31,091 nucleotides of DNA, taken from positions 1 to 31,091 of the forward strand of contig SKKC01000391.1 in assembly GCA_007121695.1 (NCBI GenBank), written 5' to 3'. This DNA comes from Spirochaetales bacterium (GTDB lineage: Bacteria > Spirochaetota > Spirochaetia > DSM-27196 > SKKC01). A program made the translations under genes and the position numbers. This document shows, piece after piece, positions 2,234-21,662 of this stretch; position 1 is the first letter of the stretch; each line of letters begins with the position of its first letter. Under the pieces are notes generated by a model. That model did not search any database, had not been told where the DNA came from, and worked only from the letters and a program-made list of their open reading frames with translations.

Positions 2234-2258
2234 AGTCAGATCATTGTATCCGAGCAGA

Positions 2259-3782: not shown

Positions 3783-4636
3783 GATGAATACTCCTCGGGA
3801 TCCCAGCTCCCGGACGCGTGCAGAACCGGGGCGTCGGCCGGCAGCACGAACACCGAAACGCCGCGTGCATGGACAACCGCCTCTGCCGTTCGCCCGATCG
3901 GGCGCGGGCCATCCTGAACCGTCGCCGATTTTCCGATAACCACCATGCGCGCACCCGCGAGGCGTGCCTGGCGTGGAATAACGCGTTCGGGCTGCCCCGT
4001 CAGCGACATGGTGGTGACGCTGCGGTTCAGGCAGCGGGCCGCAAGCCGCCCGAGCGTGCCTTCGGCCTGCTCGCGACGCGCGCGTTCTGTCTGCGGGTCA
4101 GGCGCCCTGTCGGCGCTGTGTAACAGGATCACGTGGCCGGGGCCGAAGTCGTTGCGGTTCAGAAGCGGAAGCGCGAACCGGTCGACGACGTCGAAGGCGG
4201 TCGCATACAGAATCGGGCCCTTCGGGTCAGACCAGCTCGGAAGCAGCGGCTGTTTGTGCACGAACACCGGCACATCCGTGGTACGGATTGTGTCCATGAT
4301 CATGCTCCCGGAAAACGATCGCTGTATCCAGTTTTTCGGTTTCCAGGAAGCGGCAATGCAGTCCGCTCCAATCTCCCTGGCGACGCGCGTTACCACACCA
4401 CTGTCGCTGTACCAGACCGTCCGATGCTCGACACGAAGACCCAGGTTCGAGAACATGGCACAGCGATTCTCGAGCAGGTCAGTGTTTCCGTGACTGCCCG
4501 GACCGGCATCCGGGCCGACGACATGGACCAGGACAACCGATCGCGCACCGAACCCGGACACGGACGTCGCAAGCGATTCGACCCGCCGTGTGGACTCGTT
4601 CAGTTTCAGGGGAACAAGGACTTTTTCAAATACCAT
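3779..4636 (-). CDS. Universal stress protein, tandem USP domains
   Basis: MVFEKVLVPL...VVLVHVV...GS..MDTIRTTDVPVFV, and a second domain ILYATAF...VILLHS...MVVIGK...GRTAEAVV..ARGVSVFVL. Its stop overlaps the BCCT start (ATGA). Confidence 0.85.
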   Translation of the reverse strand: MVFEKVLVPLKLNESTRRVESLATSVSGFGARSVVLVHVVGPDAGPGSHGNTDLLENRCAMFSNLGLRVEHRTVWYSDSGVVTRVAREIGADCIAASWKPKNWIQRSFSGSMIMDTIRTTDVPVFVHKQPLLPSWSDPKGPILYATAFDVVDRFALPLLNRNDFGPGHVILLHSADRAPDPQTERARREQAEGTLGRLAARCLNRSVTTMSLTGQPERVIPRQARLAGARMVVIGKSATVQDGPRPIGRTAEAVVHARGVSVFVLPADAPVLHASGSWDPEEYSS

Positions 4637-4668
4637 AGTGGTTGCTCAGAATAAATCGTGAACGCCGT

Positions 4669-6088: not shown

Positions 6089-7396
6089 TTATGGCCGCAC
6101 GCGTTTGCGGTCCCGCGGGAACAGGCTCGCGGCCTTGACGTTTTCAAGACCGAGAATCTTCTGTGTCAGCCGTTCGAGACCTATGGCGAAGCCTCCGTGC
6201 GGTGGGCAGCCATAGCGAAAAATCGAGAGATAGTCACCGAGGTCTTCGGGTTTCATTCCGAACTTCGGCAGTTCGCCCACGAGCATGTCGTAGTCGTGTA
6301 TGCGCTTGCCACCAGTCGTTATTTCCAGACCGCGGAACAGCAGGTCAAAGCTCGCGGTCTGTCGCCCGTCGGGCCAGGTGTAAAACGGCCGTTTCTTGCG
6401 AGGGAACCCGGTTACAAACACCGCCTCGATACCGTGTTCGGCTTCGGCCCAGTCGCAGAGAACCCGCTCGGCTTCCGGGTTCAGGTCAAACAGACGCTTC
6501 CCGGTGCGTTCCGAAGCGATCGCCTTCGCCTCTTCGTAGTCGATTCGCGGCGTCCGAGACAGCGCGTCGGCATCGGGGACGGAGGCTCCGTACTGTTCGA
6601 GAGCGGTTGCCGCCACTCCGTCCTTCACACCGGCGAAAATGTGTTGCAGTATTCCGAGTTCGAGGTCCATCAGGTCGTCGATGCCGTCGATAAACCCCAT
6701 TTCCACGTCGAGGCTCACGTATTCGTTCAGGTGTCGGGGGGTATCGTGTTTCTCCGCCCGGTAGGCCGCGCCTATCTCGAATACCCGCTCGAGGCCGCTT
6801 GCGACCATGGCCTGTTTGTAGAACTGCGGGCTCTGTGCAAGAAACACCCGTTCGCCGAAATAGTCCACCTCGAACAGACCCGTGCCGCCTTCGGTGCCCG
6901 ATCCAATGAGTTTGCTCGTCTTGACTTCGGTAAAATCCTGCGCCCGCAGATACTCTGCAAACAGGCGTACTATTTCGGACTGAAGCTGGAACATCGCGCG
7001 GATCTTCGGCATGCGCAGGCTCAGAATACGATGGTCAAGCAGCGTCTCTATACCGATCCCGTCGGGGTCAGCCGCCACCGGAATGGGAGCATCGAGCGCG
7101 GCAGGCCCGAGCACCTCGGTTTCCTGCGCCCGCACTTCCATGCCTCCAGGAGCCTTCTCGTTGGCTGCAGTGAGTCCCTGTATACGGACGACCGTTTCCG
7201 ACGTGACCGGAGCCGCGCCCTCGTAGACTATCTGTACAAAGCCGCTTCTGTCCCGAAGGACGACGAAGCTGACCTGCCCGAGTTCACGCACCCGGTGCAC
7301 CCAGCCTGCTACCTGTACGACTGCTCCTGCATCCATGTCCGCCACGCGGGCTGCCGCGGTGCGAACCGGTGAGGTCTGTGCATCTGTTTCACCCAT
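6089..7396 (-). CDS. aspS: Aspartyl-tRNA synthetase, short archaeal-type, non-discriminating (Asp/Asn)
   Basis: OB-fold N-terminus (GWVHRVRELG, LRDRSGFVQIV); class II motif 2 YRAEKHDTPRHLNE; motif 3 GGFAIGLERL; 435 aa with no bacterial GAD insertion. His in GWVHR and Pro in KAPGG are the residues associated with non-discriminating enzymes. ATG 7396 overlaps the gatB stop. Confidence 0.95.
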   Translation of the reverse strand: MGETDAQTSPVRTAAARVADMDAGAVVQVAGWVHRVRELGQVSFVVLRDRSGFVQIVYEGAAPVTSETVVRIQGLTAANEKAPGGMEVRAQETEVLGPAALDAPIPVAADPDGIGIETLLDHRILSLRMPKIRAMFQLQSEIVRLFAEYLRAQDFTEVKTSKLIGSGTEGGTGLFEVDYFGERVFLAQSPQFYKQAMVASGLERVFEIGAAYRAEKHDTPRHLNEYVSLDVEMGFIDGIDDLMDLELGILQHIFAGVKDGVAATALEQYGASVPDADALSRTPRIDYEEAKAIASERTGKRLFDLNPEAERVLCDWAEAEHGIEAVFVTGFPRKKRPFYTWPDGRQTASFDLLFRGLEITTGGKRIHDYDMLVGELPKFGMKPEDLGDYLSIFRYGCPPHGGFAIGLERLTQKILGLENVKAASLFPRDRKRVRP

Positions 7397-9785
7397 CTGT
7401 CGTGCTCCCTCTGTGCTCCATTCCGGCAAAGGCCTCGTCTATGTCGTCGCCGCAGACCATCGCAGCAATCAGTCGCGTGTAGGCGCTCTCTGTTGTCAGT
7501 GAGCCCATGGGTACCGCGCCTTCGCGCCACAGCGCATGACCGGTCACATATGACTGAAAGTCAACGACGCCTTCCTGCTGACTGGTGCAGTATATCCGTA
7601 CTCCCCGTCTGCGGGCTTCCTCGAAGGCAGCGCGCAGGCCGAAGGGCGAATGCCCGAGGTTCGCCGTACCGGTATCGTACAGCTCAAGCACGAACGCGGT
7701 AAACCCGGCGTCCATGAGTCGCACGAGGCTCTCGCTCCGCATACCGGGATAGATACGTGCGATGTGAACCTGCTGCATCGCTGCATCGAAACGTTCCGCG
7801 AGTTCTTCGGCGGGGACATCGGGCAGCGAAAACCCGGGCCACTGGTCAGGTCGATGATACTCTTCGTTCCATGTACGGAATCGGGCCGATGCAGTGTCTA
7901 CGCGTTCGAAGCGAAGGTTCACCGCAGGGTACACGCCGTCGGTAAGCGCGACGTGAACCGCGGGTGGCAACTCGATCGCTGCCTGCACCGCGGAGCGCAT
8001 GACCGCGGGAGCCTGTTCCGGCTGTACGGCGGCTGTCAGGACAACAGGCACCGGCGGGTTCGGAAAACACCAGCCGAGAAGCGCTGCTGTATAGGCAAGC
8101 GTATCGGTTCCATGGGACACGACAACTCCGCTCGACGATTCCTCCATTCGCTCCCGGATTGCAGCGACCAGCTGCGCCCAGTCACCGGGTGTAATCTCCT
8201 CGCTCAGAAACCCGCCCAGCGGGATCGCCTCAAAGCGTATGGAATCGGGAAGGTCAGGCTCGGATGCGAGCATGTCCGTCAGATCGCGCAGGGCACCCGC
8301 CTGCACCATGCCGTCGGGGCGTCGCTCGCCGCCGATCGCACCACCAAAGTCGAGTACGTACAGCGGCTCAACCGACAGGGCAGTCTTCAGCGCCTGCTGC
8401 AACGCGCGCGGCTCGGCGCGACCGGCGCTGCGCTTCATGGCCTCGCCGACAAGAAAGCCAAGCGGCCTGGCGTTCCCGGCGCGCACCGCCGACACCGCGT
8501 CCGGGTTGTCAGCGACAACCGCTGCGGCAAGGTCGGCAAGCGCTGCCGGATCGACGATCTGCTCCCATCCCTTTTCCTGAATTATCTCTTCCGGATCTCG
8601 GTCGAGTTCGAATACCGCTTCGAGCGTCTGTTTGGCGATCTTTCCGTGTATGCGGCTGGCCTGCAGAAGCGACAGCAACCGAGCCAGACGCGCCGGCGAA
8701 AGCGGGCTGTCGGCGAGGCTTACCGAATGCCGGTTCAGCAGCTTTCGTACGTCCGAGGTAAGCCAGGTCGCGACGGTACTCGCGTCGGCTCCTTCCTGAA
8801 TCACCGCCTCGAAGAAATCCGCCGTTTCCTTTTCGTCGCACAGGAGCTCGACGACTCTGTCGCCCAGATCGTAGGCCTGCCTGAGCCGTGCCATACGCGC
8901 CTGGGGAAGCTCGACCTGCGACGCTTTCAGCGTGGCGAGAAAGGCTTCGTCTGCCTCGACGACGGGCAGATCGGGTTCCGGGAAGTACCGGTAGTCGTGC
9001 GCGAGTTCCTTCGTCCGCATCGGCTCACTCTGATCCCGGTTCTCGTTCCACAGACGGGTTTCCACGGTGACCGTCCCGCCTCGCTCGAGAATGTCAGTCT
9101 GCCGATCTGTCTCGTACGCGAGCGCCTTGCGCACAAAGCGGGAACTGTTGAGGTTCTTGATCTCCACCTTGTTGCCAAGCGGCGCGCCTTCCGGTGCGAC
9201 GGACACGTTGGCGTCGCAGCGCATGCTGCCTTCCTCCATGTTCCCGTCGCATACACCGAGATAGCGCACCATGCGCCGAAGCTGCATCAGAAGCACTTCG
9301 GCTTCTTCGGCGATCTCGAGATCCGGTTCGGTCACGATTTCGAGCAGCGGCGTTCCCGCGCGGTTGTAGTCGAGCAGGGACATGTCGCCCGCGTGAACCA
9401 TTTTTCCTGCGTCTTCTTCGAGATGGCATTCGCTGATGCGCACTCGCCGGGTCTTTCCATGGAACTCGATATCGAGGTAGCCGTCGGTACCGATCGGCGC
9501 GCCGAACTGGCTTATCTGGTAGTTCTTGGGCAGGTCGGGATAGAAATAGTTCTTTCGCGCGAAGCGGGTATGCGGCGTCGGTGTGCAGTTCAACGCGAGT
9601 GCGACCTGATAGGCCATGCGCATGGCCTCGCCGTTCAGCGACGGAAGCACGCCGGGGTAGCCCATGCAGACCGGGCAGACATTCGTGTTCGGCTCGTCAC
9701 CGAAGGCAGCACGACATCCGCAGAAGATCTTGCTTTCTGTTAACAACTGTATGTGTATTTCAAGTCCGATTCTTGACGCGTACAT
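7389..9785 (-). CDS. gatB: Asp-tRNA(Asn)/Glu-tRNA(Gln) amidotransferase subunit B fused to a C-terminal L-asparaginase/GatD-like domain
   Basis: GatB motifs IGLEIHIQL, RKNYFYPDLPKNYQISQ, LEEDAGK, DYNRAGTPLLEIVTEP, GSMRCDANVS, DYRYFPEPDLP and a Yqey-like tail occupy about aa 1-472. The frame continues without a stop into FGGAIGG...LSEEITP..W...SHGTDTLAYTA...PVVLTA...IYPGM...GAVPMGSLTTESAYTRL (asparaginase fold). 798 aa from ATG 9785 (GAGG upstream). Confidence 0.95.
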   Translation of the reverse strand: MYASRIGLEIHIQLLTESKIFCGCRAAFGDEPNTNVCPVCMGYPGVLPSLNGEAMRMAYQVALALNCTPTPHTRFARKNYFYPDLPKNYQISQFGAPIGTDGYLDIEFHGKTRRVRISECHLEEDAGKMVHAGDMSLLDYNRAGTPLLEIVTEPDLEIAEEAEVLLMQLRRMVRYLGVCDGNMEEGSMRCDANVSVAPEGAPLGNKVEIKNLNSSRFVRKALAYETDRQTDILERGGTVTVETRLWNENRDQSEPMRTKELAHDYRYFPEPDLPVVEADEAFLATLKASQVELPQARMARLRQAYDLGDRVVELLCDEKETADFFEAVIQEGADASTVATWLTSDVRKLLNRHSVSLADSPLSPARLARLLSLLQASRIHGKIAKQTLEAVFELDRDPEEIIQEKGWEQIVDPAALADLAAAVVADNPDAVSAVRAGNARPLGFLVGEAMKRSAGRAEPRALQQALKTALSVEPLYVLDFGGAIGGERRPDGMVQAGALRDLTDMLASEPDLPDSIRFEAIPLGGFLSEEITPGDWAQLVAAIRERMEESSSGVVVSHGTDTLAYTAALLGWCFPNPPVPVVLTAAVQPEQAPAVMRSAVQAAIELPPAVHVALTDGVYPAVNLRFERVDTASARFRTWNEEYHRPDQWPGFSLPDVPAEELAERFDAAMQQVHIARIYPGMRSESLVRLMDAGFTAFVLELYDTGTANLGHSPFGLRAAFEEARRRGVRIYCTSQQEGVVDFQSYVTGHALWREGAVPMGSLTTESAYTRLIAAMVCGDDIDEAFAGMEHRGSTTDG
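7392..8370 (-). other. Asparaginase/glutaminase-like domain at the C-terminus of GatB (about aa 473-798)
   Basis: Both asparaginase signature regions are recognisable: GGAI in place of the consensus GGTI (Ala codon at 8337-8339) and HGTDT (Thr codon at 8106-8108). Confidence 0.88.
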
Positions 9786-9792
9786 AATGCCC

Positions 9793-11232
9793 TCAACTCC
9801 AGACCCGTGGATAGTTCGGCGGGGTCGGCGGTGGAAATACCCCGGCCAGTACCTTCGCAAGCCGTATCAGCCCGAAGTCGCCGCCTTTGGGCCCGGTCAA
9901 CTGCACACCCCCGGGCAAGCCGTCGTACACACCCGTCGGGAGCGCGAGAGCGGGAACGCCGGCGAGGTTGGCGACTGTCGTGTAGCGGTCGGCCTGCTTG
10001 CGCTGATACGGTGTCAGCCCATCGCTTCCCAGCGGAAACGCGAGCGTCGGAAATACCGGCGAAACCAGTACATCTACCCGCGTAAAAAGATCCTGCATAT
10101 CACGGCTGATGCGGGCCCGCAGTCGCTGTGCACGCCCGTAGTACTGATCGTGGAAGCCGCTCCTGAGCACGTAGGTCCCAAGCAGTATGCGCAGTTTCAC
10201 TTCGTCTCCAAGTCCGGTACTCCGCGACAGCCGGACGAGTTCGTCCGGGTTCTCTGCGTACAACGGACGCTCGCCGTAGCGCACTCCGTCGAAACGGGCG
10301 AGATTGGCTCCGGCTTCGGCAGTCGCAATGGTGTAATAGACGGCCGCGGCGTATTCAAGAACGGGCAGGTTTACGCGTTCCGTGTTCGCCCCCTGCGACT
10401 GCAGATACGTTTCAACGTCGCGTACCGCCTGTTGCACGGCAGGGTCGTCGGCCGTATCCGGTGCGAGCACACCCACGGTCAGGGCTTTCAGCCCGGGCGT
10501 CTCGCGCACCTGCATCGAGCGTATGTCTACAGACGTCTGGTCCTTTTCGTCCGACCCCGCGATGACGGAAAAAACAGACTCGAGTCTCTGCGGGGTGTCC
10601 GCGACGACACCGATCGTGTCCAGACTCGACGCGTAGGCGACGAGCCCGAAACGGCTGACAGCCCCGTAGGTCGGCTTCAACCCGTATACACCGCAAAAGG
10701 ACGCGGGCTGTCGAACCGACCCACCGGTATCTGACCCGAGCGCCACCGGTACCATGCCGGACGCCACGGCAGCGGCGGACCCACCGCTTGAACCGCCCGC
10801 TGTTCGCGACAGATCCCATGGGTTTCTGGTCGCAGACAGCGTACTCGTATCGGTGGCGGAACCCATGCCAAACTCATCGAGACTGGTCTTGCCGACAATC
10901 CGGGCACCGGCTTCTTTCAGCTGTGCGACCGCAGTTGCGTCGTAGGGGCTTTCGAACTGTTCAAGCAGTTTCGATCCGCAGGTCAGGCGAAAATCGCGTA
11001 CCGCGATGTTATCCTTGACTGCGACGGGCAGGCCCGCGAGCGGACCCTCGCCGGGATCTTCCGGAGCAGGAGAACGAAACTCCAGAAACGCTTCGAGCTC
11101 TCCGTTTCTCGCGTCGACGGTTGCACCATATTCGCTGACCGTGTCGGCTGTATTCAGGACGGTTTTCCAGTCGGCTTGCACCACGTGCTCCTTTATCTCG
11201 TAACCGGAAGCCCGGATACCGGGCTCGGCCAC
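9793..11232 (-). CDS. gatA: Asp-tRNA(Asn)/Glu-tRNA(Gln) amidotransferase subunit A
   Basis: Amidase signature with intact Ser-cisSer-Lys triad: VAVKDNI, GGSSGGSAAAVA, GSDTGGSVRQPA; also ARFDGVRYG and EVKLRILLGTYVLRSG. Confidence 0.97.
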   Translation of the reverse strand: MAEPGIRASGYEIKEHVVQADWKTVLNTADTVSEYGATVDARNGELEAFLEFRSPAPEDPGEGPLAGLPVAVKDNIAVRDFRLTCGSKLLEQFESPYDATAVAQLKEAGARIVGKTSLDEFGMGSATDTSTLSATRNPWDLSRTAGGSSGGSAAAVASGMVPVALGSDTGGSVRQPASFCGVYGLKPTYGAVSRFGLVAYASSLDTIGVVADTPQRLESVFSVIAGSDEKDQTSVDIRSMQVRETPGLKALTVGVLAPDTADDPAVQQAVRDVETYLQSQGANTERVNLPVLEYAAAVYYTIATAEAGANLARFDGVRYGERPLYAENPDELVRLSRSTGLGDEVKLRILLGTYVLRSGFHDQYYGRAQRLRARISRDMQDLFTRVDVLVSPVFPTLAFPLGSDGLTPYQRKQADRYTTVANLAGVPALALPTGVYDGLPGGVQLTGPKGGDFGLIRLAKVLAGVFPPPTPPNYPRVWS

Positions 11233-11253: not shown

Positions 11254-11532
11254 TCAGAGTACATTCGGAATGACAATGTAGCGGTCCTCTATCTCGGGAC
11301 CACGATCAATGAGGGCGTCGGCGTCACAAAAGCGGCTCAACACATCGTCCCGGAGGGCCGTGACGGGGCGAACAGGTACGTCTGCTTCGGCCCCGGAATC
11401 GATGTCGGCATCGGCCATGAGGTCGAAATACTGAAGCATGCGCTTCACTTCGTCCGCAAAGCGTGTCTGTTCTTCGTCCGAGAGATCGAGTTTGGCCAGT
11501 GCTGCGGTTATGGAAAGTTCCGTGTCACCCAC
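11254..11532 (-). CDS. gatC: Amidotransferase subunit C
   Basis: 92 aa; ALAKLDLSDEE...LRDD...YIVIPNVL pattern; lies directly upstream of gatA. Confidence 0.9.
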   Translation of the reverse strand: MGDTELSITAALAKLDLSDEEQTRFADEVKRMLQYFDLMADADIDSGAEADVPVRPVTALRDDVLSRFCDADALIDRGPEIEDRYIVIPNVL

Positions 11533-11693: not shown

Positions 11694-13115
11694 GTGACAA
11701 AAAGAGAGTTCCCGACCATACATTTTTACGATCAGGATTTTGTCGACCTGTATAATCAGACCTGGACCTGGATGGATGATTTCCAGAAGAAAGGGACCAC
11801 ACGGAATAAACTGCAGCCGAAGTATCTGAACTATCCTTCGTCCGAGACGGTCAATCAGTTCGACGCGTGCTTTTCCACCTTTTATCTGGTGTATTCGAAC
11901 CGCATCTACTCGGCGGCCGCGCAGCTGGACAACTTCTACGGCCGCCAGGAAAAAGACGGTGCAATTCGAGGGGAGTACTCGCTGAAAGACGGAAAACCGG
12001 TTACTACGCGAGATAACCCGGAATGCGTGCACCCACCGCTGTTCGCGTGGGCCGAGTACAACCTGTACCACAAGATAGGAAACAAGAAGCGAATCAAGGA
12101 AATCATGCCCATACTCGAAGCGTATTTCGAGTGGCTCGAGGCGACCTTCAAACAGGAAAATGGCCTGTACGCGGCACCGCTTCACGCGACGACCATGACC
12201 AACTCGCCACGGAAAAAATCGAAATATCCTGTCGACTTCAACGCCCAGCAGGCCATAAACGCGCTGTACATGTCCGAACTCGGCGACATCCTGAACGATA
12301 AGGACATCAGCTTTAAATACAAGCGTCATTATTTCAGTCTGAAAACCCGCATCAACTCGCTCATGTGGAACGACGACGCGGGATTCTACTTTGATCTCGA
12401 CAGCAAGGAAGAGCAGGTACAGGTAAAGACCATCGCAGGCTTCTGGCCGCTGCTGGGCGAGATACCGAACGAAGCGAAGAGCGACCCGCTTATCCGCCAC
12501 GTGCGCGACCCGGAAACATTCGGAACCGAAAACCCCTTCCCCACCGTTGCGGCGAACGAACCGGATTTTGACGAAAACGGAACCGGTTACAAGGGTTCGG
12601 TCTATCCTCCCTTTACATTCATGGTAATCAAGGGACTGGAAAAGTACGGGCAGTTCGAACTTGCCCGGGAATGCGCGATCAGACACCTGTATTACATTCT
12701 CGATACGCTTCACCCCGAGGGGAAGGACAAGGGCAACGTCTGGGAGGCCTACCTGCCTCGCAAGGATGGTCCGTCGAAATGGAGAGGCAAGGCGGGCTTT
12801 CCCCGCCCCATGTTCCTGACCTACACCGCTCTTTCTTCCGTGGCGCTCATGATAGAGAACGTGATCGGACTGTATATCAGCCTGCCGCGCAAGACGGTCG
12901 ACTGGATCATTCCCACGCTTGAAATCATGGGCATAGAGAATCTCTCGCTCAAGCGGAACCTCGTCACCATTCTCAGCAACAAGACTTCACGCGGCTGGGA
13001 GATTCGTCTCGAGAGCGAGAAGCTCTATTACTTCACCATCGACATCCTGCGGCACAAGAAGAAAACACTGCCCATTCCCTCGGGCAAGTGCTCCATGCTT
13101 ATCGACAAGCTCTAA
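11694..13115 (+). CDS. GH63/MGH1-like (trehalase-like) (alpha/alpha)6-barrel glycoside hydrolase family protein
   Basis: NQFDACF, HPPLFAWAEY, TNSPR, LMWNDDAGFYFD, KTIAGFWPLL, YKGSVYPPFTFMVIKGLEKYG, VWEAYLP motifs typical of GH63/GH37-clan barrels. Confidence 0.75.
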   Translation: MTKREFPTIHFYDQDFVDLYNQTWTWMDDFQKKGTTRNKLQPKYLNYPSSETVNQFDACFSTFYLVYSNRIYSAAAQLDNFYGRQEKDGAIRGEYSLKDGKPVTTRDNPECVHPPLFAWAEYNLYHKIGNKKRIKEIMPILEAYFEWLEATFKQENGLYAAPLHATTMTNSPRKKSKYPVDFNAQQAINALYMSELGDILNDKDISFKYKRHYFSLKTRINSLMWNDDAGFYFDLDSKEEQVQVKTIAGFWPLLGEIPNEAKSDPLIRHVRDPETFGTENPFPTVAANEPDFDENGTGYKGSVYPPFTFMVIKGLEKYGQFELARECAIRHLYYILDTLHPEGKDKGNVWEAYLPRKDGPSKWRGKAGFPRPMFLTYTALSSVALMIENVIGLYISLPRKTVDWIIPTLEIMGIENLSLKRNLVTILSNKTSRGWEIRLESEKLYYFTIDILRHKKKTLPIPSGKCSMLIDKL

Positions 13116-13813
13116 GCGTCAGACTCGCCTTCGGCGGCCCGGGCCTTCGCGCGTTTCTTTATCGCGGCTCCTAAAAGCGTAATGCGCTTTCCGGGTGCCA
13201 CACCGGTCGGACAGACCCGTGAACAGCTGAAGTTTTTGGTGCAGCGCTCCACCCCGCGAGCGTCTGCGGCGAGATCGAGCCACCTGTCGGCCTCGTGGGG
13301 AGATTTTTCGACCATGCGGTGTATCGAAGCGAGCGCTGCCGGTCCCATCCAGTCCTCGGTCACGGGACAGCTGGTCACGCACAGCCCGCACTCGATGCAG
13401 TTTTCGAAGCGCTCGTAGTGCTCCATGCCCTCGGGAACTGCAGCGTCGGTGTTCACGTCGCTCACCCGGGTGTAGGTAATGTCGTCCGGAAACTCGTTAA
13501 AGAACTCCGCCGGATCGAAGGCTAAGTCACCGATCTGATGCATGGTCGGCAGCGGCTCGATACGCACCGGCTGATCCTCGGGAATGTCGGCGAGGCGCTT
13601 GATGCACGCGAGCACGAACTCCCCGTTCACCGCCACACCACAGGTGCCACAGGACCCGTGATGGCATGACTGCCGGAACATGAGATCCGGTTCTTCCTGA
13701 AGCCGGATGTATTCGAGTGCGTCTATGATCGTCGTCCGTTCGTTGTACGGCACCGTAAATTCGCTGACCTTCTGTGTGGCCGTCCGGTACACTGCAACCG
13801 TTCGTTCATTCAT
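13112..13813 (-). CDS. Succinate dehydrogenase/fumarate reductase iron-sulfur subunit-like protein (SdhB/FrdB family)
   Basis: [2Fe-2S] motif SCHHGSCGTCG...LAC; CIECGLCVTSCP; CTKNFSCSRVCP; family motifs TIIDALEYI, IEPL, MGPAAL. Confidence 0.9.
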   Translation of the reverse strand: MNERTVAVYRTATQKVSEFTVPYNERTTIIDALEYIRLQEEPDLMFRQSCHHGSCGTCGVAVNGEFVLACIKRLADIPEDQPVRIEPLPTMHQIGDLAFDPAEFFNEFPDDITYTRVSDVNTDAAVPEGMEHYERFENCIECGLCVTSCPVTEDWMGPAALASIHRMVEKSPHEADRWLDLAADARGVERCTKNFSCSRVCPTGVAPGKRITLLGAAIKKRAKARAAEGESDA

Positions 13814-15006
13814 ACGAGTACTCCCTGGCGAAAAAAGTGACGGTAGTTCGGAAGAGGTTCACTGGCGGTCCGGCAGGGTGTATCCACGTCGAACAGGTCG
13901 CATACAACGTCAACCGTCTTTTCACCCATGGCTCTGAGCGTCGTTGCCTTACCTCCGGTCAGGCTCAGCATGCCTTCGACGTTGTCGAGCTTCGCGTGAT
14001 CGCGAACGTCGAAGTCCCGACTGAGTTCCCGCCCCTCCTCTTCGGTCGACGACGCTCCAGCCAGAGGACGAACAGCAGCCCACGCCTTGTGATACGCAGT
14101 CTCCTTGAAGTCCGGCACCATCTCGATTGCTGCCTTCGTGAGAAACTCGACGTCGGCGTCGGGCACCGTACAGTCGTCCGGGTCGTCGGTCTGCCACTGC
14201 GTCGATCCGATAATGGACAGTCCTCGCTGCGGAACCAGAATGTCGCCGTCACTCGCAGGCCGCAGCCGCTCGATTATGTTGTTTACGAGCCGCCCCTGAT
14301 GCGCGAGCATGGTGCCGGGGGCCGGAGTAATCGGCAGCTCTATGTCGGCCATGGCGGCGAGTCGACCGGCCCAGCCGCCTGTCGCGTTGATCACCAGATC
14401 GCATTTCACCGTTTCGTCGGCGCCGGTACGAAGGTCGTGTACCGTCACCCCAGCGATCCTGCGGCCCTCGAATACGAGCGACTCCACCCGCGTAAAGTTG
14501 CGAATAACGGCGCCGAGTTTCCGCGCTCCTGCGAAAAAGTGCATGGGCAGACGGTACGCGTCGAGGGTTCCGTCCGGCACCATTACGCCGCCGAGAAGTC
14601 CGGGATTCAAACGGGGTTCCATGGCGAGAACCTGCTCGGAGGTCAGCCACTGCGCGGGTATGTCTGCTTCAGCGCAGGCCTGTTCGAAGGTTTCGCGGAA
14701 CGCCAGCTCTTCTTCGTCAAAGGCGACGAATATACCGCGATTCGCTTCTATGGCTTCGGGAGCAATGCGCGTGAGAATACGCACCTCGTCCATGCATTCC
14801 CTGCCGACTTCCCGGTCCTTCACTACGTAGCGGGCTCCGGAGTGCAGAAGCCCGTGATGGCGGCCCGTCGAGCCACAGGTCAGTTCGCCGCGCTCGAACA
14901 GCGTTGCCTTGAATCCGCGTTGTACAAGATCGTAGAGGATTGCAGCGCCGGTGCCCCCGCCGCCCACAACGACCACGTGCGTATCTGATGCATTGCTCAT
15001 ACGCAT
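13810..15006 (-). CDS. FAD-dependent glycerol-3-phosphate dehydrogenase subunit A-like flavoprotein (short form without the C-terminal Fe-S domain)
   Basis: VVVGGGGTG Rossmann motif; GSTGRHHGLLHSGARY..KD.E..RECM.E closely resembles the anaerobic GlpA motif; also DGTLDAYRL, LTGGKATTLRAMGEKTVD. Ends at 398 aa. Start could be 15006 or 15000. Confidence 0.85.
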   Translation of the reverse strand: MRMSNASDTHVVVVGGGGTGAAILYDLVQRGFKATLFERGELTCGSTGRHHGLLHSGARYVVKDREVGRECMDEVRILTRIAPEAIEANRGIFVAFDEEELAFRETFEQACAEADIPAQWLTSEQVLAMEPRLNPGLLGGVMVPDGTLDAYRLPMHFFAGARKLGAVIRNFTRVESLVFEGRRIAGVTVHDLRTGADETVKCDLVINATGGWAGRLAAMADIELPITPAPGTMLAHQGRLVNNIIERLRPASDGDILVPQRGLSIIGSTQWQTDDPDDCTVPDADVEFLTKAAIEMVPDFKETAYHKAWAAVRPLAGASSTEEEGRELSRDFDVRDHAKLDNVEGMLSLTGGKATTLRAMGEKTVDVVCDLFDVDTPCRTASEPLPNYRHFFRQGVLV

Positions 15007-15061: not shown

Positions 15062-15089
15062 AGGCTATCAGATTGACTGTTTTTGTCAA
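15062..15089 (-). promoter_or_regulatory. sigma70 promoter of the glpA-like/sdhB-like pair with a perfect inverted repeat over the -35
   Basis: Minus strand TTGACA-N16-TAGCCT with extended -10 TG; palindrome TTGAC-N7-GTCAA at 15073-15089. Confidence 0.55.
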
Positions 15090-15850
15090 GAATGCGACGC
15101 GACGAACCAGTCTATCAGATACCGGGCCACACTCGATCGCGGGGGAATGTCGGGCAGCTCGTCCGGCCGACACCAGAAGGCATGGTCGATTTCAACGCCA
15201 TCCACCTGAATTTCGCCTGCCTGGTAGTCGCACACGAATGCGATCATGAGGCTGTCGGGGAATGGCCAGGGCTGACTGCGCATGTAGCGGATGTTCCCGA
15301 CGGTGATTCCCGTTTCTTCGGCGACCTCACGCGCTACGCACTCCTCGAGCGTTTCACCAGGTTCGACAAATCCGGCGATTACGCTGTAGTAGCGGGATGC
15401 GCGACGCGAGTTATGGGCGAGCAGCAGTCGGCCGTCGCGAACAACCGCCACGATTACGGCCGGAGAAATGCGCGGATACACCACCGATCCGCATGTGGGA
15501 CAGCGGCGTGCCACCTCCTCCCCGACACGCACCGTCTCCGTACCACAGCAGCCGCAGTAGCGGTGGGTTCGGTCCCAGTGCGCCAGGTGCACACCCCGGG
15601 CAGCGCAGCGAAAGTCCGCTTCCGGTACGCTCCGCATGAGCTCGCGCAGCGTGTGGCAGTCGTAGCCCTCGGGCACCTGCTGTTCCGCAGGTGCGGACAG
15701 CAGACCCATCCTGGCCCCCGACGAGCACAGCCCCAGATCAACCGCTGAGGCTGCATCCAGACCGAGGCTGTTCAGGTCGGTTTGTGCGAGCAATACCCGG
15801 CCCTCCCGGGATATCAGTTTATCTTCTACACGTACGATGTACACCTGCAC
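15086..15850 (-). CDS. nudC: NAD(+) diphosphatase (NADH pyrophosphatase)
   Basis: Zinc finger RYCGCCG...RRCPTCG..YPRISPAVI, Nudix box AGFVEPGETLEECVAREVAEETG, SQPWPFPDS. Start set at GTG 15850 (254 aa, the usual NudC size); the ORF-track start overlaps the divergent gene. ATG 15907 is an alternative. Confidence 0.93.
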   Translation of the reverse strand: MQVYIVRVEDKLISREGRVLLAQTDLNSLGLDAASAVDLGLCSSGARMGLLSAPAEQQVPEGYDCHTLRELMRSVPEADFRCAARGVHLAHWDRTHRYCGCCGTETVRVGEEVARRCPTCGSVVYPRISPAVIVAVVRDGRLLLAHNSRRASRYYSVIAGFVEPGETLEECVAREVAEETGITVGNIRYMRSQPWPFPDSLMIAFVCDYQAGEIQVDGVEIDHAFWCRPDELPDIPPRSSVARYLIDWFVASHS

Positions 15851-15856
15851 GCCAGC

Positions 15857-15886
15857 ATTGTAGTGCTCACGGGTCCTGTCCGCCAG
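15857..15886 (-). promoter_or_regulatory. Candidate promoter giving a leaderless nudC transcript
   Basis: Minus strand CTGGCG-N18-TACAAT followed by 6 nt and the GTG start. Confidence 0.45.
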
Positions 15887-15895
15887 GGGGGAAAC

Positions 15896-15924
15896 TTGAC
15901 ACTGCATATGACGCTCCATAGACT
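15896..15924 (+). promoter_or_regulatory. Near-consensus sigma70 promoter of the HD-GYP gene
   Basis: TTGACA (15896-15901)-N17-TAGACT (15919-15924). Confidence 0.7.
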
Positions 15925-15941
15925 TGATTACAGAACAGCAT

Positions 15942-17186
15942 ATGACGTCTTCCGAACAGAAACTCCGTGATATTCTACAGCTCGACGCGGAACTCAATCG
16001 TATACAGGACGTCGACATCCTGCTCGAGCGTATTCTCTCCGAAGCGCGCAGGGTTTCAAGTGCCGACGCCGGAAGCATTTACGTCCGGCGCGAAGACGAG
16101 CTTCTGATCAGCTACGCGCAGAACGACACGCATCAGGCCAAGCTGCCACCGGGGCATAAACTCATTTACAATGTCTTTACCGTCCCGATAAGCCGCAAGA
16201 CCATCAGCGGCTACTGTGCGGCGACGGGAGAACAGGTAAACATTCCAGATGTATACGAGATTCCGGACGAGGCTCCGTACGGCTTCGACCCGTCCTACGA
16301 CCGGATCAGCAAGTACCGCTCCAAGTCCATGCTCGCCATTCCGCTCCGCGACCAGAACGGCACGATACTCGGCGTAATCCAGCTTATAAACAAGAAGAAC
16401 CCCGACGGTTCTGTCGGGGAGTTCGATGCAGATGACGAACTCATTACCATGCATTTCGCCACAAACGCGACGGTCGCGCTGCAACGGGCACAAATGACCC
16501 GCGCCATAATCCTTCGCATGATCCGCATGGCAGAGCTGCGCGATCCGAAGGAAACCGGGCCCCACGTAAACCGGGTGGCGGGCTATTCGGTGGAAATCTA
16601 TGAGCGCTGGGCGCAGAAAAAAGGCTACGATCAGGCGCAGATAGACCGGGCGCGTGACAACCTTCGAATGGCGGCCATGCTCCACGACGTGGGAAAAGTG
16701 GCCATCTCCGATGCCATTCTCAAGAAACCGGCGAAGTTCACCGACGAAGAGTTCAACATCATGAAGACCCACACCTGGATGGGCGCACGGCTCTTCGCCG
16801 ACAGGCAGTCGGAGTTCGACGACATCGCCGCAGAGGTCGCGATCAGTCATCACGAAAGCTGGGACGGTACGGGCTATCCCGGGAAGATCGATGTCAATAC
16901 TGGCGAACCCTACGAGACGGACGACAGCGGGCGTCCCGTAGGGTTCAGAGAAGACGAGATTCCGATCTACGGGAGAATCGTATCGATTGCGGACGTGTAC
17001 GATGCGCTCAGTTCGCGCAGGGTCTACAAACAGGCCTGGTCCGAGGACGATGTCATAGACGAGATCAAAAAACTCAGCGGAATAAAGTTCGACCCGGACG
17101 TCGTTGAGTGTTTTCTCGAAGTACTGCCGAACATCCGGCAGATTACGGAAAAATACAAGGACCCCGAACCACCAGCAGGCGAATGA
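15942..17186 (+). CDS. GAF + HD-GYP domain protein (predicted c-di-GMP phosphodiesterase)
   Basis: N-terminal GAF (SADAGSIY, YRSKSMLAIPL, GVIQLINK); ETGPHVNRV, MLHDVGK, HHESWDGTGYP, IADVYDAL..RRVYK. ATG 15942 chosen because TTG 15924 lies within the -10 box. Confidence 0.93.
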   Translation: MTSSEQKLRDILQLDAELNRIQDVDILLERILSEARRVSSADAGSIYVRREDELLISYAQNDTHQAKLPPGHKLIYNVFTVPISRKTISGYCAATGEQVNIPDVYEIPDEAPYGFDPSYDRISKYRSKSMLAIPLRDQNGTILGVIQLINKKNPDGSVGEFDADDELITMHFATNATVALQRAQMTRAIILRMIRMAELRDPKETGPHVNRVAGYSVEIYERWAQKKGYDQAQIDRARDNLRMAAMLHDVGKVAISDAILKKPAKFTDEEFNIMKTHTWMGARLFADRQSEFDDIAAEVAISHHESWDGTGYPGKIDVNTGEPYETDDSGRPVGFREDEIPIYGRIVSIADVYDALSSRRVYKQAWSEDDVIDEIKKLSGIKFDPDVVECFLEVLPNIRQITEKYKDPEPPAGE

Positions 17187-17234: not shown

Positions 17235-18635
17235 TTATGCTTCCTTGTAGGCCTGAACAAGATCGTCGAGCGCCTTCTTTCCATCACCAAAATACATCAG
17301 TGTGTTGTCGAGCGCGAAGAGGGGATTCGCTATACCGGCGAACCCCGGACTCAGACTTCGTTTGATAACCACCACCGTACGCGACTTGTCCACGTCGAGA
17401 ATTGGCATGCCCGAAATTGGCCCTCCAGCTTCACGAGCTGACGGATTCACGACGTCGTTCGCACCAATAACAATGCTGACGTCGGTATTCTTGAAGGTCG
17501 GATTGATCTGATCCATTTCCTTCAGCTTGTCGTAGCTGATCGCTTCCTCGGCAAGCAGTACGTTCATGTGGCCGGGCATGCGTCCGGCAACCGGATGTAT
17601 GCCGAACTCGACCGTGATATCGTCGGCTTCCATTGCCTCGGTCAGCTGCCGCACGGCCGACTGCGCCCGGGCCACAGCCATGCCATAGCCTGGTACAAAC
17701 ACGACCCGTCGCGCCGTCTTCAGAATCATTGCCACTTCGTCGGCGTTCGTGCTCTTGATCTTTCCGTCGTAGATATCGTCAGTCGCAGCCTTTTCAGGGA
17801 TGGCTCCCATGCCTCCGAAGAGAACGTTCGCAAGCGAACGGTTCATGGCCTTGCACATGATCTGCGTCAGGATAATGCCGGACGCTCCTACCAGCGATCC
17901 CGACACGATCAGAATCGTGTTGGAGAGGACGAAACCGGTCGCGGCAGCGGCCAGTCCCGAATAGGAGTTCAGGAGCGCAATGACAATGGGCATGTCGGCT
18001 CCGCCAATGGGAACAACGAGCAGAAGGCCAAGCAGACCCGCAACCGCTGTGAGAATCCAGAACAGCGACATGTCAGCGGGCTCGAGAATAACCATGACTG
18101 CACCTGCAACGGTCAGGCCTGCGACGAGGATCTTGACGATCTGTTCGCCGCGGTAGCGGACCGGCTGCTCGGTCACGAGGCCCTGCAGCTTCGCAAACGC
18201 GACAACCGAGCCGGTGAAGGTAACCGCACCAATGATCGCACTCAGAACCGTTGCAATGGAGACCTGCAGCGACAGTTCTCCGGCTCCCGCGCCGCTGATA
18301 ATTCCGACTGCCTGCATGAGCGCAGCAGCTGCAACCAGCACAGAAGCGCCACCGCCGAAGCCGTTAAACAGCCCGACAAGCTGCGGCATCGCAGTCATTT
18401 TGATCGTCAGCGCGAGCACTGCCCCGAGCGCTGCTCCGCCCGCCATACCGGCAATGAGCACCGGTCCGTTGAGCATCTGCTGATCTACGAGCGTCACGAC
18501 GACGGCAATGAGCATGGCAATAGCGCCGAGCAGGTTGCCGCGAACAGCGCTTCGCGGATGCGTCAGACCTTTCAGTCCCAGAATAAAGAGTACCGCAGCT
18601 ATGAGATACGCAAGATTTACAAAATCGAATTCCAT
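17235..18635 (-). CDS. pntB: NAD(P) transhydrogenase subunit beta
   Basis: MPQLVGLFNGFGGGAS, GGADMPIVIALLNSYSG, VPGYGMAVARAQ, HPVAGRMPGHMNVLLAE, GANDVVNP. Confidence 0.97.
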   Translation of the reverse strand: MEFDFVNLAYLIAAVLFILGLKGLTHPRSAVRGNLLGAIAMLIAVVVTLVDQQMLNGPVLIAGMAGGAALGAVLALTIKMTAMPQLVGLFNGFGGGASVLVAAAALMQAVGIISGAGAGELSLQVSIATVLSAIIGAVTFTGSVVAFAKLQGLVTEQPVRYRGEQIVKILVAGLTVAGAVMVILEPADMSLFWILTAVAGLLGLLLVVPIGGADMPIVIALLNSYSGLAAAATGFVLSNTILIVSGSLVGASGIILTQIMCKAMNRSLANVLFGGMGAIPEKAATDDIYDGKIKSTNADEVAMILKTARRVVFVPGYGMAVARAQSAVRQLTEAMEADDITVEFGIHPVAGRMPGHMNVLLAEEAISYDKLKEMDQINPTFKNTDVSIVIGANDVVNPSAREAGGPISGMPILDVDKSRTVVVIKRSLSPGFAGIANPLFALDNTLMYFGDGKKALDDLVQAYKEA

Positions 18636-18645
18636 GAACAGACCC

Positions 18646-18924
18646 CTACTTCCTGAACTTCTTGAGCATGCGGTGCGTCACGAGAAAACCGCCAACGACG
18701 TTGGTCGTCGCGAACACGAGCGCGGTCACACCAAGCACGGCCGCAAGCGGCCCGCTTCCGGATCCGCTCGCCACTATCGCCCCTACGAGCGTTATACCGG
18801 ATATCGCGTTCGATCCGGACATGAGCGGGGTATGCAGAATGGGCGGTACCTTGGTAATTACTTCAAACCCGACAAATACAGCCAGGGCGAAAATGGTCAA
18901 TATCATTACAAAACTGGTGTCCAT
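18646..18924 (-). CDS. pntAB: NAD(P) transhydrogenase subunit alpha, part 2 (membrane)
   Basis: KVPPILHTPLMSGSNAISGI, NVVGGFLVTHRML. Confidence 0.95.
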   Translation of the reverse strand: MDTSFVMILTIFALAVFVGFEVITKVPPILHTPLMSGSNAISGITLVGAIVASGSGSGPLAAVLGVTALVFATTNVVGGFLVTHRMLKKFRK

Positions 18925-18931
18925 GCTGTTT

Positions 18932-20074
18932 CTACTCCTTTTCGTATGCAGCCTTCAGAAACTGACCGCGGATTTCGCCATCGTGAATGACCAGCGTGGA
19001 ATCGGTGATCTCGTCTTCCAGGTCGACAGTCAACTCACCCTCGCGCACGATGTTCTGCAGGAAGGTAACCATGTTCTTGCTGTACAGCTGCGAGGCGCTT
19101 CCGGCCATCTCCGACACGAGATTCAGCGGGCCGATAATTGTCACGCCGTGCGCAACGACCGTTTCTCCCGGTTTCGTCAGCTCGCAGTTCCCTCCCCGTT
19201 CGGCGCCGAGGTCGACAATGACGGAGTTCGGCTGCATGCCGGCTACCATTTCGGCGGTGACAAGTCGTGGGGCAGGTTTACCGGGTACGGCTGCCGTTGT
19301 AATGACAACATCACTTTCGGCGAGTACGGTTTTCATCATCTCCCGCTGCTTTTCATAAAACGTCTCGTCCATTTCCTTCGCGTAGCCACCAGAGCCTTCC
19401 GCGCTGTCGCCAAGGTCCAGTTCCACGAACTTCGCCCCGAGGCTTTCTGCCTGTTCCTTCGCGGCGCTGCGAACATCGTAGGCGCTGACCACCGCCCCGA
19501 GACGCTGTGCCGTCGCAATGGCCTGCAGCCCCGCGACCCCCACGCCGACGATAAACACTTTCGCCGGAACTATGGTTCCGGCTGCGGTCATCATCATCGG
19601 GAACATTTTCGGCAAGGTGGTCGCCGCGGTCAGAACCGCCTGATACCCCGCGAGGTTTGCCATGGACGACAGGACGTCCATGCTCTGCGCGCGGGTTATG
19701 CGTGGAACAAGCTCGAGCGAAAACAGGGATGCCTTTCCCTGGACCATTGTGTCGAAGGATTCGTGTTTCCGGTACGGGTCCGCCATGCCGACCCAGATCT
19801 GTCCTGCATGACCAACTTCGGCAGCAGCACCACCGTCCGCCGAGGCGGCACATCTGACGCTTGCAATGACATTGCTTTCTGCGACAATGGCTGCCCGGTC
19901 GCCACGGACCGCGCCTTTTTCCTCGTACTCGCTGTCGGCGTAACCCGCCGCCGCACCCGCACCTGTTTCAAACCGCACTTCACAGCCGATTTTCTGCAGC
20001 AGGGAGACATGCGCCGGGACAATGGCAACACGTTTCTCGCCGGGTGCTGTTTCTTTAAGCACACCTACAATCAT
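18932..20074 (-). CDS. pntAA: NAD(P) transhydrogenase subunit alpha, part 1 (NAD-binding domain I)
   Basis: GEKRVAIVP, RITRAQSMDVLSSMANLAGY, FPMMMTAAGT, GVGVAGLQAIATA, GGYAKEM, GGNCELT. Confidence 0.96.
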   Translation of the reverse strand: MIVGVLKETAPGEKRVAIVPAHVSLLQKIGCEVRFETGAGAAAGYADSEYEEKGAVRGDRAAIVAESNVIASVRCAASADGGAAAEVGHAGQIWVGMADPYRKHESFDTMVQGKASLFSLELVPRITRAQSMDVLSSMANLAGYQAVLTAATTLPKMFPMMMTAAGTIVPAKVFIVGVGVAGLQAIATAQRLGAVVSAYDVRSAAKEQAESLGAKFVELDLGDSAEGSGGYAKEMDETFYEKQREMMKTVLAESDVVITTAAVPGKPAPRLVTAEMVAGMQPNSVIVDLGAERGGNCELTKPGETVVAHGVTIIGPLNLVSEMAGSASQLYSKNMVTFLQNIVREGELTVDLEDEITDSTLVIHDGEIRGQFLKAAYEKE

Positions 20075-20162: not shown

Positions 20163-21662
20163 CTATTTTTCGTGATGCAGGATCAAATCTGAGACGATTT
20201 TGCCACCGGAAACAACCAGGGGCATGCCCCCGCCGGGGTGGCAGCTTCCGCCGCAGAAATACAGCCCGTGATACCGTTTCGAACGGTTGGGATGCCGGAG
20301 AAAGGCAGCCGTTCTGCTGTTCGATGAGATGCCATAGAGCGATCCGCGGTAGCTGCTTGTGCGCTCGGCAATGTCAGCGGGCGTCATGACCGCTTCGGTC
20401 TCGATATGTTTCTCTACGTCGACGCCGATTCGCGAAGAAATCGTTGCCAGCGCAGTTTTGCGGACACGCTCGGCCTCTGCAGACCAGTCCTGACCATTAT
20501 CGTACGGCGCGTTTACAAGCACAAACCAGTTCTCGCCGTGATCGGGTGCGTCGGCAGGCGACGACTTGGAGGTAATGTTCACGTATACGGTCGGATCGTC
20601 CGGGCAGACGCCTTCTTCGAAGATCTGCCTGAACTCGCTGCGGTAGTCCCGGGAGAAGAAAATATTGTGATGCGAGAGCTCCGGACACTCGCGGCCAACG
20701 CCCCAGTAGAATACGAGTGCCGACGAGCTCGGCTCAAGCGACTCGTACCTCAGGAGTTCGGGCGCATCGGGCTCTGAAAGAAGATCGCGATACGCGATGG
20801 TGACGTCGGCGTTACAGACGACTGCCTGCGCGGGTACGTGAGCCCCGTTCACGCTGACCCCGGTTACCCTGCGACGACGTTTGTCCTGACGCCAGGTTAT
20901 CTGTTCCACCCGCTCGCCACGGTGTATGTGAACGCCAAGTTCGCGGGCAAGCTGTTCCAGCGCCCGCGGAATCGCGTGTATACCGCCTTCCACGGCGTAC
21001 GCACCGCCCCGGTATTCGACGTGCGGAATAATGTTCAGGGTTGCCGGGGTCTGAAAAGGGTCCGATCCGTTATAGGTCGCGTAGCGCTCGAACAGTTGCC
21101 GGGCGTGGGGCGTTTCGAAGTGGCGTTCTACCGACTGCGCCATGGTCCGCAGCGGGTCAATGCCGGGCAGACGGAGCAGAGACGCAAGAAAACCGAAGCG
21201 TACATAGGACGATGCTTCATGCAGGCTCCGGTTCAGAAACATATCCGCGGCAATGGAATAAATGCGACTGGAATAGTCGAGAAATCGCTTGAGGTTCGCC
21301 GGATTCTCGCCCGCCCGTTCGTGTAACTCCCGTGCAAACCGTTCCTCGTCGGCCCAGGCGCTCAGAGAAACGCCGTCGGGGTAGAAGTACCGGCAGACCT
21401 CCGGGAGCGGGATCAGCGTGACGTAGTCTGCCAGATCACGGCCTGCCACACGAAACAGATCCTCGAACACCCCCGGCATGGTTACCAGAGACGGTCCGGT
21501 ATCGAAACGATACCCGTCGCGTGTCATAGTGCCGGCCTTACCGCCGACGTAGTCCGATCCGTCGTATACAGCCACCTGCCAGCCCCGTGCAGCGAGTCGG
21601 ATCGCCGCCGAGAGTCCGCCAAGTCCTGCGCCAATAACTACAGCTACACGTTTATCGTTCAT
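20163..21662 (-). CDS. Phytoene desaturase family carotenoid dehydrogenase (CrtI/CrtD-like)
   Basis: VIGAGLGGLSAAIRLA, GYRFDTGPSLVTMP, ATYNGSDPF..PA, PSSSALVFYWG, HHNIFFS, DPTVYVNI, GGSCHPGGGMPLV. Confidence 0.88.
   Translation of the reverse strand: MNDKRVAVVIGAGLGGLSAAIRLAARGWQVAVYDGSDYVGGKAGTMTRDGYRFDTGPSLVTMPGVFEDLFRVAGRDLADYVTLIPLPEVCRYFYPDGVSLSAWADEERFARELHERAGENPANLKRFLDYSSRIYSIAADMFLNRSLHEASSYVRFGFLASLLRLPGIDPLRTMAQSVERHFETPHARQLFERYATYNGSDPFQTPATLNIIPHVEYRGGAYAVEGGIHAIPRALEQLARELGVHIHRGERVEQITWRQDKRRRRVTGVSVNGAHVPAQAVVCNADVTIAYRDLLSEPDAPELLRYESLEPSSSALVFYWGVGRECPELSHHNIFFSRDYRSEFRQIFEEGVCPDDPTVYVNITSKSSPADAPDHGENWFVLVNAPYDNGQDWSAEAERVRKTALATISSRIGVDVEKHIETEAVMTPADIAERTSSYRGSLYGISSNSRTAAFLRHPNRSKRYHGLYFCGGSCHPGGGMPLVVSGGKIVSDLILHHEK

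Follow-up and report, generated by a model that had tools for sequence, protein, structure and literature searches.

What enzyme do a truncated GlpA-like flavoprotein and an SdhB-like iron-sulfur (Fe-S) protein form when their genes overlap and stand apart from any membrane anchor gene? The question is raised by a stretch of 31,091 nucleotides (nt) from a Spirochaetales bacterium (contig SKKC01000391.1 of assembly GCA_007121695.1), the whole of which is called the window below. Textbooks describe two bacterial glycerol-3-phosphate (G3P) dehydrogenases that use flavin adenine dinucleotide (FAD), GlpD and GlpABC. A first-pass annotation of the window had proposed a hybrid enzyme, whose GlpA-type flavoprotein would oxidise G3P or a related substrate and hand the electrons to an SdhB-type Fe-S wire. 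This proposal is supported by the adjacency of the two genes, their co-inheritance, conserved residues and the gene context in relatives. New here is a large anchor-less clade of GlpA-SdhB enzymes that includes the window pair. In our judgement the pair probably encodes an anchor-less heterodimeric G3P dehydrogenase, derived from a four-gene enzyme and devoid of a classical complex-II quinone site. The clade may be seen as a natural experiment in which a three-cluster SdhB-type wire has been cut from the membrane, and the identity of the electron acceptor becomes the key question.

Sequence and predicted structure of the two proteins

The upstream gene (positions 13810 to 15006, minus strand) encodes P0001, a short GlpA-type FAD flavoprotein of 398 residues and the predicted G3P-oxidising subunit. 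The downstream gene (13112 to 13813, minus strand) encodes P0002, an SdhB/FrdB-type Fe-S subunit of 233 residues. As read from the sequence, the TGA stop codon of the glpA-like gene and the ATG start codon of the sdhB-like gene share the tetranucleotide ATGA (13810 to 13813, minus strand), an overlap that suggests translational coupling. Both genes, their overlap and the missing C-terminal tail of the flavoprotein were found as the first-pass annotation had described them.

P0001 matches the DAO-type FAD domain PF01266 (2.5e-53). Its best family model is GlpA (TIGR03377; 428 bits, 5e-128), which is covered over profile positions 1 to 378 of 530. The score stays below the equivalog cut-off of this model (552.8 bits) because a tail of about 150 residues is missing. 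The protein is 39% identical to, and colinear with, Escherichia coli GlpA through the motif PCRTASEPLP, and ends about 12 residues later. E. coli GlpA extends some 140 residues further and includes there the cysteines of the [2Fe-2S]-binding BFD domain, which have no counterpart in the alignment with P0001. The AlphaFold2 model of P0001, with a predicted local distance difference test (pLDDT) value of 92.9, comprises the whole DAAO-type fold, behind which there is no more than a coil and a helix of four residues. Among solved structures it is matched best by G3P oxidase and GlpD, with TM-scores of 0.80 to 0.84.

P0002 scores 158.8 bits on the SdhB/FrdB model TIGR00384, above the cut-off of 88, and matches the domains PF13085 (Fer2_3) and PF13183 (Fer4). 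On the TfrB model it reaches 123 bits, which is under the cut-off of that model, and an Atlas look-up returned generic SdhB clusters only. The complete cysteine patterns noted in the first-pass annotation were all located: C50/C55/C58/C70 for the [2Fe-2S] cluster, C139/C142/C145/C149-P for the [4Fe-4S] cluster and C191/C197/C201-P for the [3Fe-4S] cluster. All three motifs are kept in 92 of 92 sequences of the clade. The closest solved structures by sequence are E. coli FrdB (1kf6_B) and the H207T mutant of E. coli SdhB (2wp9_B). The AlphaFold2 model (pLDDT 89) adopts the FrdB/SdhB fold over its full length, with TM-scores of 0.70 to 0.76, and the top 30 matches of this model in the PDB are all FrdB or SdhB chains.

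Conservation of the gene pair

The first-pass annotation had proposed a survey of gene neighbourhoods. We searched species-representative genomes, which yielded 16 loci, and metagenomes of the Joint Genome Institute (JGI) with an alignment of the SdhB clade. The JGI metagenomes alone yielded at least 496 relatives of the SdhB clade, which shows the family to be large among bacteria; 80 of these loci were kept. The survey showed the adjacency to be conserved. A glpA-like gene lies directly upstream of the sdhB-like gene at all 16 genome loci, and a short GlpA (median 398 residues) occupies this position in all 34 metagenome loci that span 4.5 kb or more. When every locus with at least 700 nt of upstream sequence is counted, the short glpA is found at 63 of 64. 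The open reading frames (ORFs) of the GlpAs that were checked all stop within a few residues of the end point of P0001. The adjacency persists in sequences that share as little as about 38% identity and in widely differing gene surroundings, and clustering of the ORFs of the 16 and 34 loci revealed no conserved third gene beyond the pair.

The pairwise identities of the two proteins correlate with r = 0.88 over 49 loci. In the GlpA tree the SdhB-linked sequences group together with a support of 97, and their clade is nested in a wider one consisting of short forms only. The pairing of glpA-like and sdhB-like genes is far beyond chance, and strict adjacency, correlated identities and congruent trees together indicate a co-inherited functional unit.

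Nearest to the window locus in the scan of species-representative genomes are Spirochaetaceae metagenome-assembled genomes (MAGs) from soda-lake and hypersaline sediments, and close homologues bear the names Alkalispirochaeta, Spirochaeta and Anaerolineales. Among cultured species, Alkalispirochaeta americana and A. sphaeroplastigenens have the pair. When 300 Spirochaetota species were sampled evenly, only two other genomes contained a close relative of P0002. The pair is patchy within Spirochaetota and concentrated in saline and alkaline lineages. These results bear on the metabolic reconstruction of soda-lake and sediment MAGs, where such genes are annotated as 'FAD-dependent oxidoreductase' and 'succinate dehydrogenase iron-sulfur subunit'.

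Some loci depart from the common arrangement. The two genes overlap or lie close together except at L052, L061, L070, L080 and L114, all from low-GC sediment metagenomes, where they are separated by 440 to 670 nt. Six-frame reading of these gaps gave no convincing ORF for a hidden third subunit. Natural GlpA-SdhB fusions were absent among the best 150 representatives at 50% identity; one candidate, P0361, looks like a frameshifted fragment. The only non-spirochaete match of the genome scan, L019 from a record titled as a Halomonas sp. MAG, has both genes broken into several frames (three plus three tblastn pieces). Decay of the copy, faulty assembly or wrong binning of the contig could each account for this.

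Membrane anchors and the quinone-site histidine

Genes for the membrane subunits SdhC and SdhD, called by a match to PF01127 or as tblastn relatives of matching genes, directly follow the sdhB-like gene at seven loci (L063, L054, L067, L096, L100, L101 and L105) and at no other locus of the sample. No SdhC/D homologue was found at 69 of the 74 loci with at least 600 nt of downstream sequence, and most members of the family in the sample nearest the window lack a membrane anchor. PF01127 had no match in five genomes with the pair, namely that of the window and four relatives, one of them a complete chromosome of 3.9 Mb. A tblastn search of the window's own genome with the anchors of L063 and L096 also found no SdhC/D relative.

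To root the SdhB tree, E. coli SdhB, E. coli FrdB and the host's own SdhB were used as outgroups. The seven anchored sequences branch off near the base, as two groups in succession, and all anchor-less sequences fall into a single clade, with a support of 98 in FastTree (85 rows) and of 98 in an IQ-TREE analysis under the posterior mean site frequency model (39 rows; Shimodaira-Hasegawa-like approximate likelihood ratio test). On the GlpA side, the four-gene loci fall inside the same clade as the two-gene forms.

The alignment column of E. coli SdhB His207, the histidine of the Qp quinone site, corresponds to the residue after the first cysteine of the third motif. The threonine of the H207T mutant in 2WP9 aligns there to Thr192 of P0002. 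All 7 anchored sequences have histidine in this column and none of the 85 anchor-less ones does, so that loss of the anchors and loss of the quinone-site histidine coincide without exception in the sample. The anchor-less sequences have Glu (49), Asp (14), Gln (9), Arg (4), Thr (3), Ala (3), Lys (2) or Val (1) instead. Given the tree and this split, the simplest reading is that the anchor genes were lost once, and the Qp histidine with them, in the ancestry of the anchor-less clade, of which the window pair is a member.

Glycerol-3-phosphate as the likely substrate

Residues H55, R59, Y60, R313, R330 and K353 of P0001 are invariant in all 52 linked GlpAs. Four of them, R59, R313, R330 and K353, align to R54, R317, R332 and K354 of E. 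coli GlpD, which are the substrate-site residues of the GlpD structures. Gene context in relatives also points to glycerol metabolism. At the related loci L096 and L102, a glpK gene whose score exceeds its equivalog cut-off is found upstream in the same orientation. At six loci the pair adjoins a divergent operon for a Ugp-like ABC transporter (solute-binding protein and two permeases) and a glycerophosphodiester phosphodiesterase (GDPD), which is complete at four (L058, L064, L088 and L107). The window's own genome has its glpK elsewhere, beside two SorC-type regulators, and P0001 is the only GlpA/GlpD homologue found in that genome. G3P is the likely substrate of P0001, since residues of the GlpD site are conserved, relatives show a glycerol or G3P context and no other candidate to act after GlpK was found in the host.

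Relation to known enzymes

G3P dehydrogenases have been sorted by their C-termini and downstream genes by Schmerling et al. (2025, Commun Biol 8:539, PMC11962113). From gene order, that paper draws a GlpA-SdhBCD type for Thermofilum pendens (Tpen_1127 and downstream genes), whose GlpA is described as one that "almost entirely lack[s] a C-terminal extension", and states that bacterial glpA co-occurs "consistently" with glpB and glpC (PMC11962113). We found no other paper tying glpA to sdhB in the literature searched. The GlpA-SdhB design is therefore not wholly new; within the GlpA-SdhBCD type, the two-gene form is a derived branch without anchors. As far as the description in the paper allows a comparison, the Thermofilum type likewise has a GlpA that stops just past the DAAO fold, with an SdhB-type gene immediately downstream. 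The bacterial four-gene loci (L063, L096 and others) are basal sisters and the nearest outgroups of the window clade. The window pair differs from this type in having no sdhC or sdhD in the operon or found elsewhere in the genome, in carrying Thr192 in place of the His207 equivalent, and in belonging to hosts that lack the respiratory-chain markers searched for.

The catalytic domain of P0001 shares its conserved residues, as well as 39% identity, with GlpA of the E. coli GlpABC enzyme, and a role downstream of GlpK is common to both. The pair lacks the BFD tail, GlpB and GlpC of that enzyme, and its Fe-S centres come from the SdhB-type subunit. P0002 resembles the Fe-S subunit of complex II (SdhABCD or FrdABCD) in its fold, its three cluster motifs and its best matches, E. 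coli FrdB and SdhB. Unlike complex II, however, its partner is a flavoprotein of the DAO family and not SdhA, membrane subunits are missing and the Qp histidine is absent. Furthermore, the third [2Fe-2S] ligand of P0002 is a cysteine (CGTC), whereas E. coli SdhB and the host's own SdhB have Asp at this position.

A truncated GlpA-like flavoprotein with a separately encoded partner is also known as GlpA-CoxG from Sulfolobus acidocaldarius (Saci_2032/2031; PMC11962113). There the CoxG-like partner tethers the enzyme to the membrane and has no Fe-S clusters, and quinone is reduced by the flavoprotein itself, whereas the partner in the window is a three-cluster Fe-S protein. Finally, SdhB-type subunits function without SdhC/D in type E succinate:quinone reductases and in the thiol:fumarate reductase TfrAB of methanogens, where SdhB works with CCG-domain proteins and not with haem-b anchors. 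Such a cluster exists in a relative of the host, genome G002. The window pair differs from these enzymes in that no CCG domain is fused to it or adjoins it, and in that its third motif is of the classical [3Fe-4S] type.

Proposed mechanism and electron acceptor

The two genes would encode a heterodimeric FAD and Fe-S sn-glycerol-3-phosphate dehydrogenase. The short GlpA-type subunit would oxidise G3P to dihydroxyacetone phosphate (DHAP) on its FAD, as homology, conserved residues and gene context suggest. Because this subunit has no Fe-S tail of its own, it is predicted to dock on the SdhB-type subunit at the place where SdhA sits in complex II. Electrons would then pass from FAD to the [2Fe-2S], [4Fe-4S] and [3Fe-4S] clusters in turn, a path that is consistent with the conserved motifs and the fold. 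The pair would represent an anchor-less branch of a GlpA-SdhB-SdhC-SdhD enzyme that has lost sdhC, sdhD and the Qp histidine, so that the classical complex-II quinone site would no longer be usable. In the spirochaete host the enzyme is most likely soluble or loosely attached to the membrane and would feed a different acceptor. We regard the case for a non-quinone acceptor as about evenly balanced, and see roughly the same balance between soluble delivery of the electrons and their delivery to a quinone at the membrane periphery. MenB above cut-off, MqnA, cytochrome bd and haem-copper oxidase (COX1) all had no match in the five spirochaete genomes with the pair, which fits fermentative anaerobes and speaks against a classical quinone-linked chain.

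Several points weigh against an anchor-less enzyme of this kind that acts on G3P and bypasses quinone. The source MAG, of 2.8 Mb, is only 76% complete, and the rooting of the SdhB tree rests on three long outgroup branches. The neighbours of the pair at the spirochaete loci are nudC, an MGH1-like hydrolase and gatCAB, with no glycerol gene among them. According to PMC3334918, which cites PDB 2WP9, the E. coli SdhB H207T enzyme is stable and active, and loss of the histidine alone is therefore no proof of lost quinone reduction. MenA-like UbiA prenyltransferases are encoded in all five genomes, with a score above cut-off in G002 and at cut-off in the window's own genome. The host contig C181 (L120) encodes a MenA-like UbiA prenyltransferase, a polyprenyl synthetase and a YceI-like protein in a row (279 to 2918). 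Judged by its gene content, the cluster could be used to salvage the head group of a quinone, or to make some other prenylated product.

Three rival explanations and one further reading were also weighed. The pair might form no complex at all, its adjacency being inherited synteny and P0002 serving an SdhA of the genome. We hold this to be highly improbable. The host does have two SdhA/FrdA genes, on contigs C324 and C352, without recognisable anchors, which suggests unusual complex-II biology in this organism; but each is followed by its own sdhB, 32 to 34% identical to P0002, so neither is an orphan in need of P0002. An orphan sdhA-sdhC or glpBC set elsewhere, which the first-pass annotation had named as a possible home for the two subunits, did not emerge from the genome search: there is no orphan sdhA, no SdhC/D and no GlpB (TIGR03378), the last being absent from the own genome and the four relatives alike. 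Moreover, the start and stop codons of the pair overlap, the adjacency outlasts deep divergence in very different neighbourhoods, the GlpA and SdhB trees are congruent, and the short GlpA has lost the one Fe-S centre that canonical GlpA has and hence needs an acceptor. It is also improbable, if less so, that the flavoprotein oxidises another substrate, for instance one of the other 2-hydroxy or amino compounds handled by DAO-family enzymes, and that its likeness to GlpA reflects ancestry only. The score under the GlpA equivalog cut-off, the lack of glycerol genes in spirochaete neighbourhoods and a GFO/IDH/MocA oxidoreductase directly upstream of the pair at some loci would fit such a case. 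The missing tail, however, explains the score, the residues that match the GlpD substrate site never vary, and glpK or ugp/GDPD genes stand at related loci. P0001 is, besides, the sole candidate to complete the glpK pathway in its genome, and its model is structurally closest to G3P oxidases and dehydrogenases.

More weight attaches to the explanation that the same heterodimer, with the same chemistry, reduces a membrane quinone; we rate it as rather unlikely. The heterodimer would attach itself to the membrane in the manner of the monotopic GlpD, or rely on an unlinked partner such as a CCG-domain (SdhE/GlpC-like) protein. The MenA-like prenyltransferase would make the quinone, starting from a salvaged head group. 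The MenA-like genes in the five genomes favour this explanation, as do the clusters on C181 and in G002. The latter, on contig C72 (L119, 313 to 6260), encodes an amine-oxidase-like flavoprotein, SdhA, SdhB, a protein with two CCG domains and a MenA-like UbiA prenyltransferase. The third motif of its SdhB is C-x2-C-x2-C-x3-CP, the genome has neither MenB nor MqnA, and from its gene content the cluster appears to be a type-E-like complex II beside a quinone prenyltransferase. Activity of the H207T enzyme and a G3P/DHAP couple that, by textbook potentials, thermodynamically suits menaquinone point the same way, as does the anchor-less locus L102, which has a CCG/GlpC-like gene a few kb upstream. 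This was the one locus where a search for such a partner beside the pair had any success, and then at a distance; no CCG gene adjoins the pair in about 95 loci. The CCG protein of G002 has no homologue in the host's assembly, and P0002 carries the classical C-x5-C-x3-CP [3Fe-4S] motif, not the CCG-linked motif of G002. Against quinone reduction stand also the five genomes without MqnA, MenB above cut-off or a quinol oxidase (bd, COX1), and the Qp histidine gone from 85 of 85 anchor-less sequences. Unlikely, too, is a fully soluble, quinone-independent G3P dehydrogenase whose exposed [3Fe-4S] end passes electrons, directly or via a small soluble carrier, to a cytoplasmic redox enzyme. The same genomes hold SdhAB-type flavoprotein/Fe-S pairs without recognisable anchors, and the recipient could be such anchor-less SdhAB-type fumarate reductases. 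If true, complex-II parts would have given rise to a membrane-free electron path from G3P to fumarate or another sink.

The host's canonical sdhA-sdhB pairs show features of their own. Contig C324 carries sdhA at 1898 to 3925 and sdhB at 3940 to 4674, and the encoded SdhB has Gln at the position of E. coli His207. Contig C352 carries sdhA at 327 to 2189 and an sdhB fragment at 3 to 326. PF01127 matched no anchor gene beside these pairs or anywhere in the assembly, and no transmembrane ORF that might be a hidden anchor lies upstream of the sdhA genes. SdhA-type genes occur in all five related genomes with the pair, and the four of these that were searched have no PF01127 match. The only CCG protein of the host's assembly is encoded on another contig, beside a rhodanese gene.

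Organization of the locus and neighbouring genes

The searches confirmed that the window contains no glpB, glpC, sdhA/frdA or anchor gene. As the first-pass annotation had it, the pair is closed by a convergent gene, which encodes an MGH1-like glycoside hydrolase (11694 to 13115, plus strand). The stop codon of this gene overlaps that of the sdhB-like gene by 4 nt. The hydrolase is of the GH63 type and resembles mannosylglycerate/glucosylglycerate hydrolases; its gene holds the convergent position at 11 of 16 spirochaete loci, and a link to the breakdown of compatible solutes is possible from this similarity. A terminator-like hairpin with a T-rich tail (13068 to 13087, minus strand) lies 25 nt past the sdhB-like stop codon, within the 3' end of the hydrolase gene. 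This is a weak call, as two such sites occur in the region against 2.1 expected by chance.

Upstream of the pair and on the same strand lies nudC (15086 to 16078, minus strand), separated from the glpA-like gene by 79 bp. The promoter of its own that had been ascribed to the pair fared less well than the other features. A perfect TTGACA is followed after 16 nt by a poor -10 element, TAGCCT (15062 to 15089, minus strand), and the -35 element overlaps the nudC stop codon. This weak candidate was read by eye, and a consensus promoter scan made no call on it. A putative promoter of the pair is possible, and so is co-transcription with nudC.

Beyond the MGH1-like hydrolase gene lies gatCAB, with gatC (about 11254 to 11532, minus strand) and gatA (9793 to 11232, minus strand) followed by a single ORF of 823 codons (7389 to 9860, minus strand). 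The latter encodes GatB (GatB_N and GatB_Yqey) fused to a complete asparaginase/glutaminase (Asparaginase and Asparaginase_C). The fusion recurs in relatives, at L010 (11266 to 13107) and as ORF cluster c7 at nine loci. From its domains, the fused amidotransferase would bear two glutaminase-type modules, the GatA amidase and the GatD-like asparaginase. On the other side of the pair, three genes encode a PntAB NAD(P) transhydrogenase (17235 to 20074, minus strand), composed of PntA (18932 to 20074), a piece with four transmembrane segments (18646 to 18924) and PntB (17235 to 18635). An amine-oxidase-type flavoprotein (20163 to 21662) and a GH3 hydrolase are encoded next to it, and all of these genes look ordinary.

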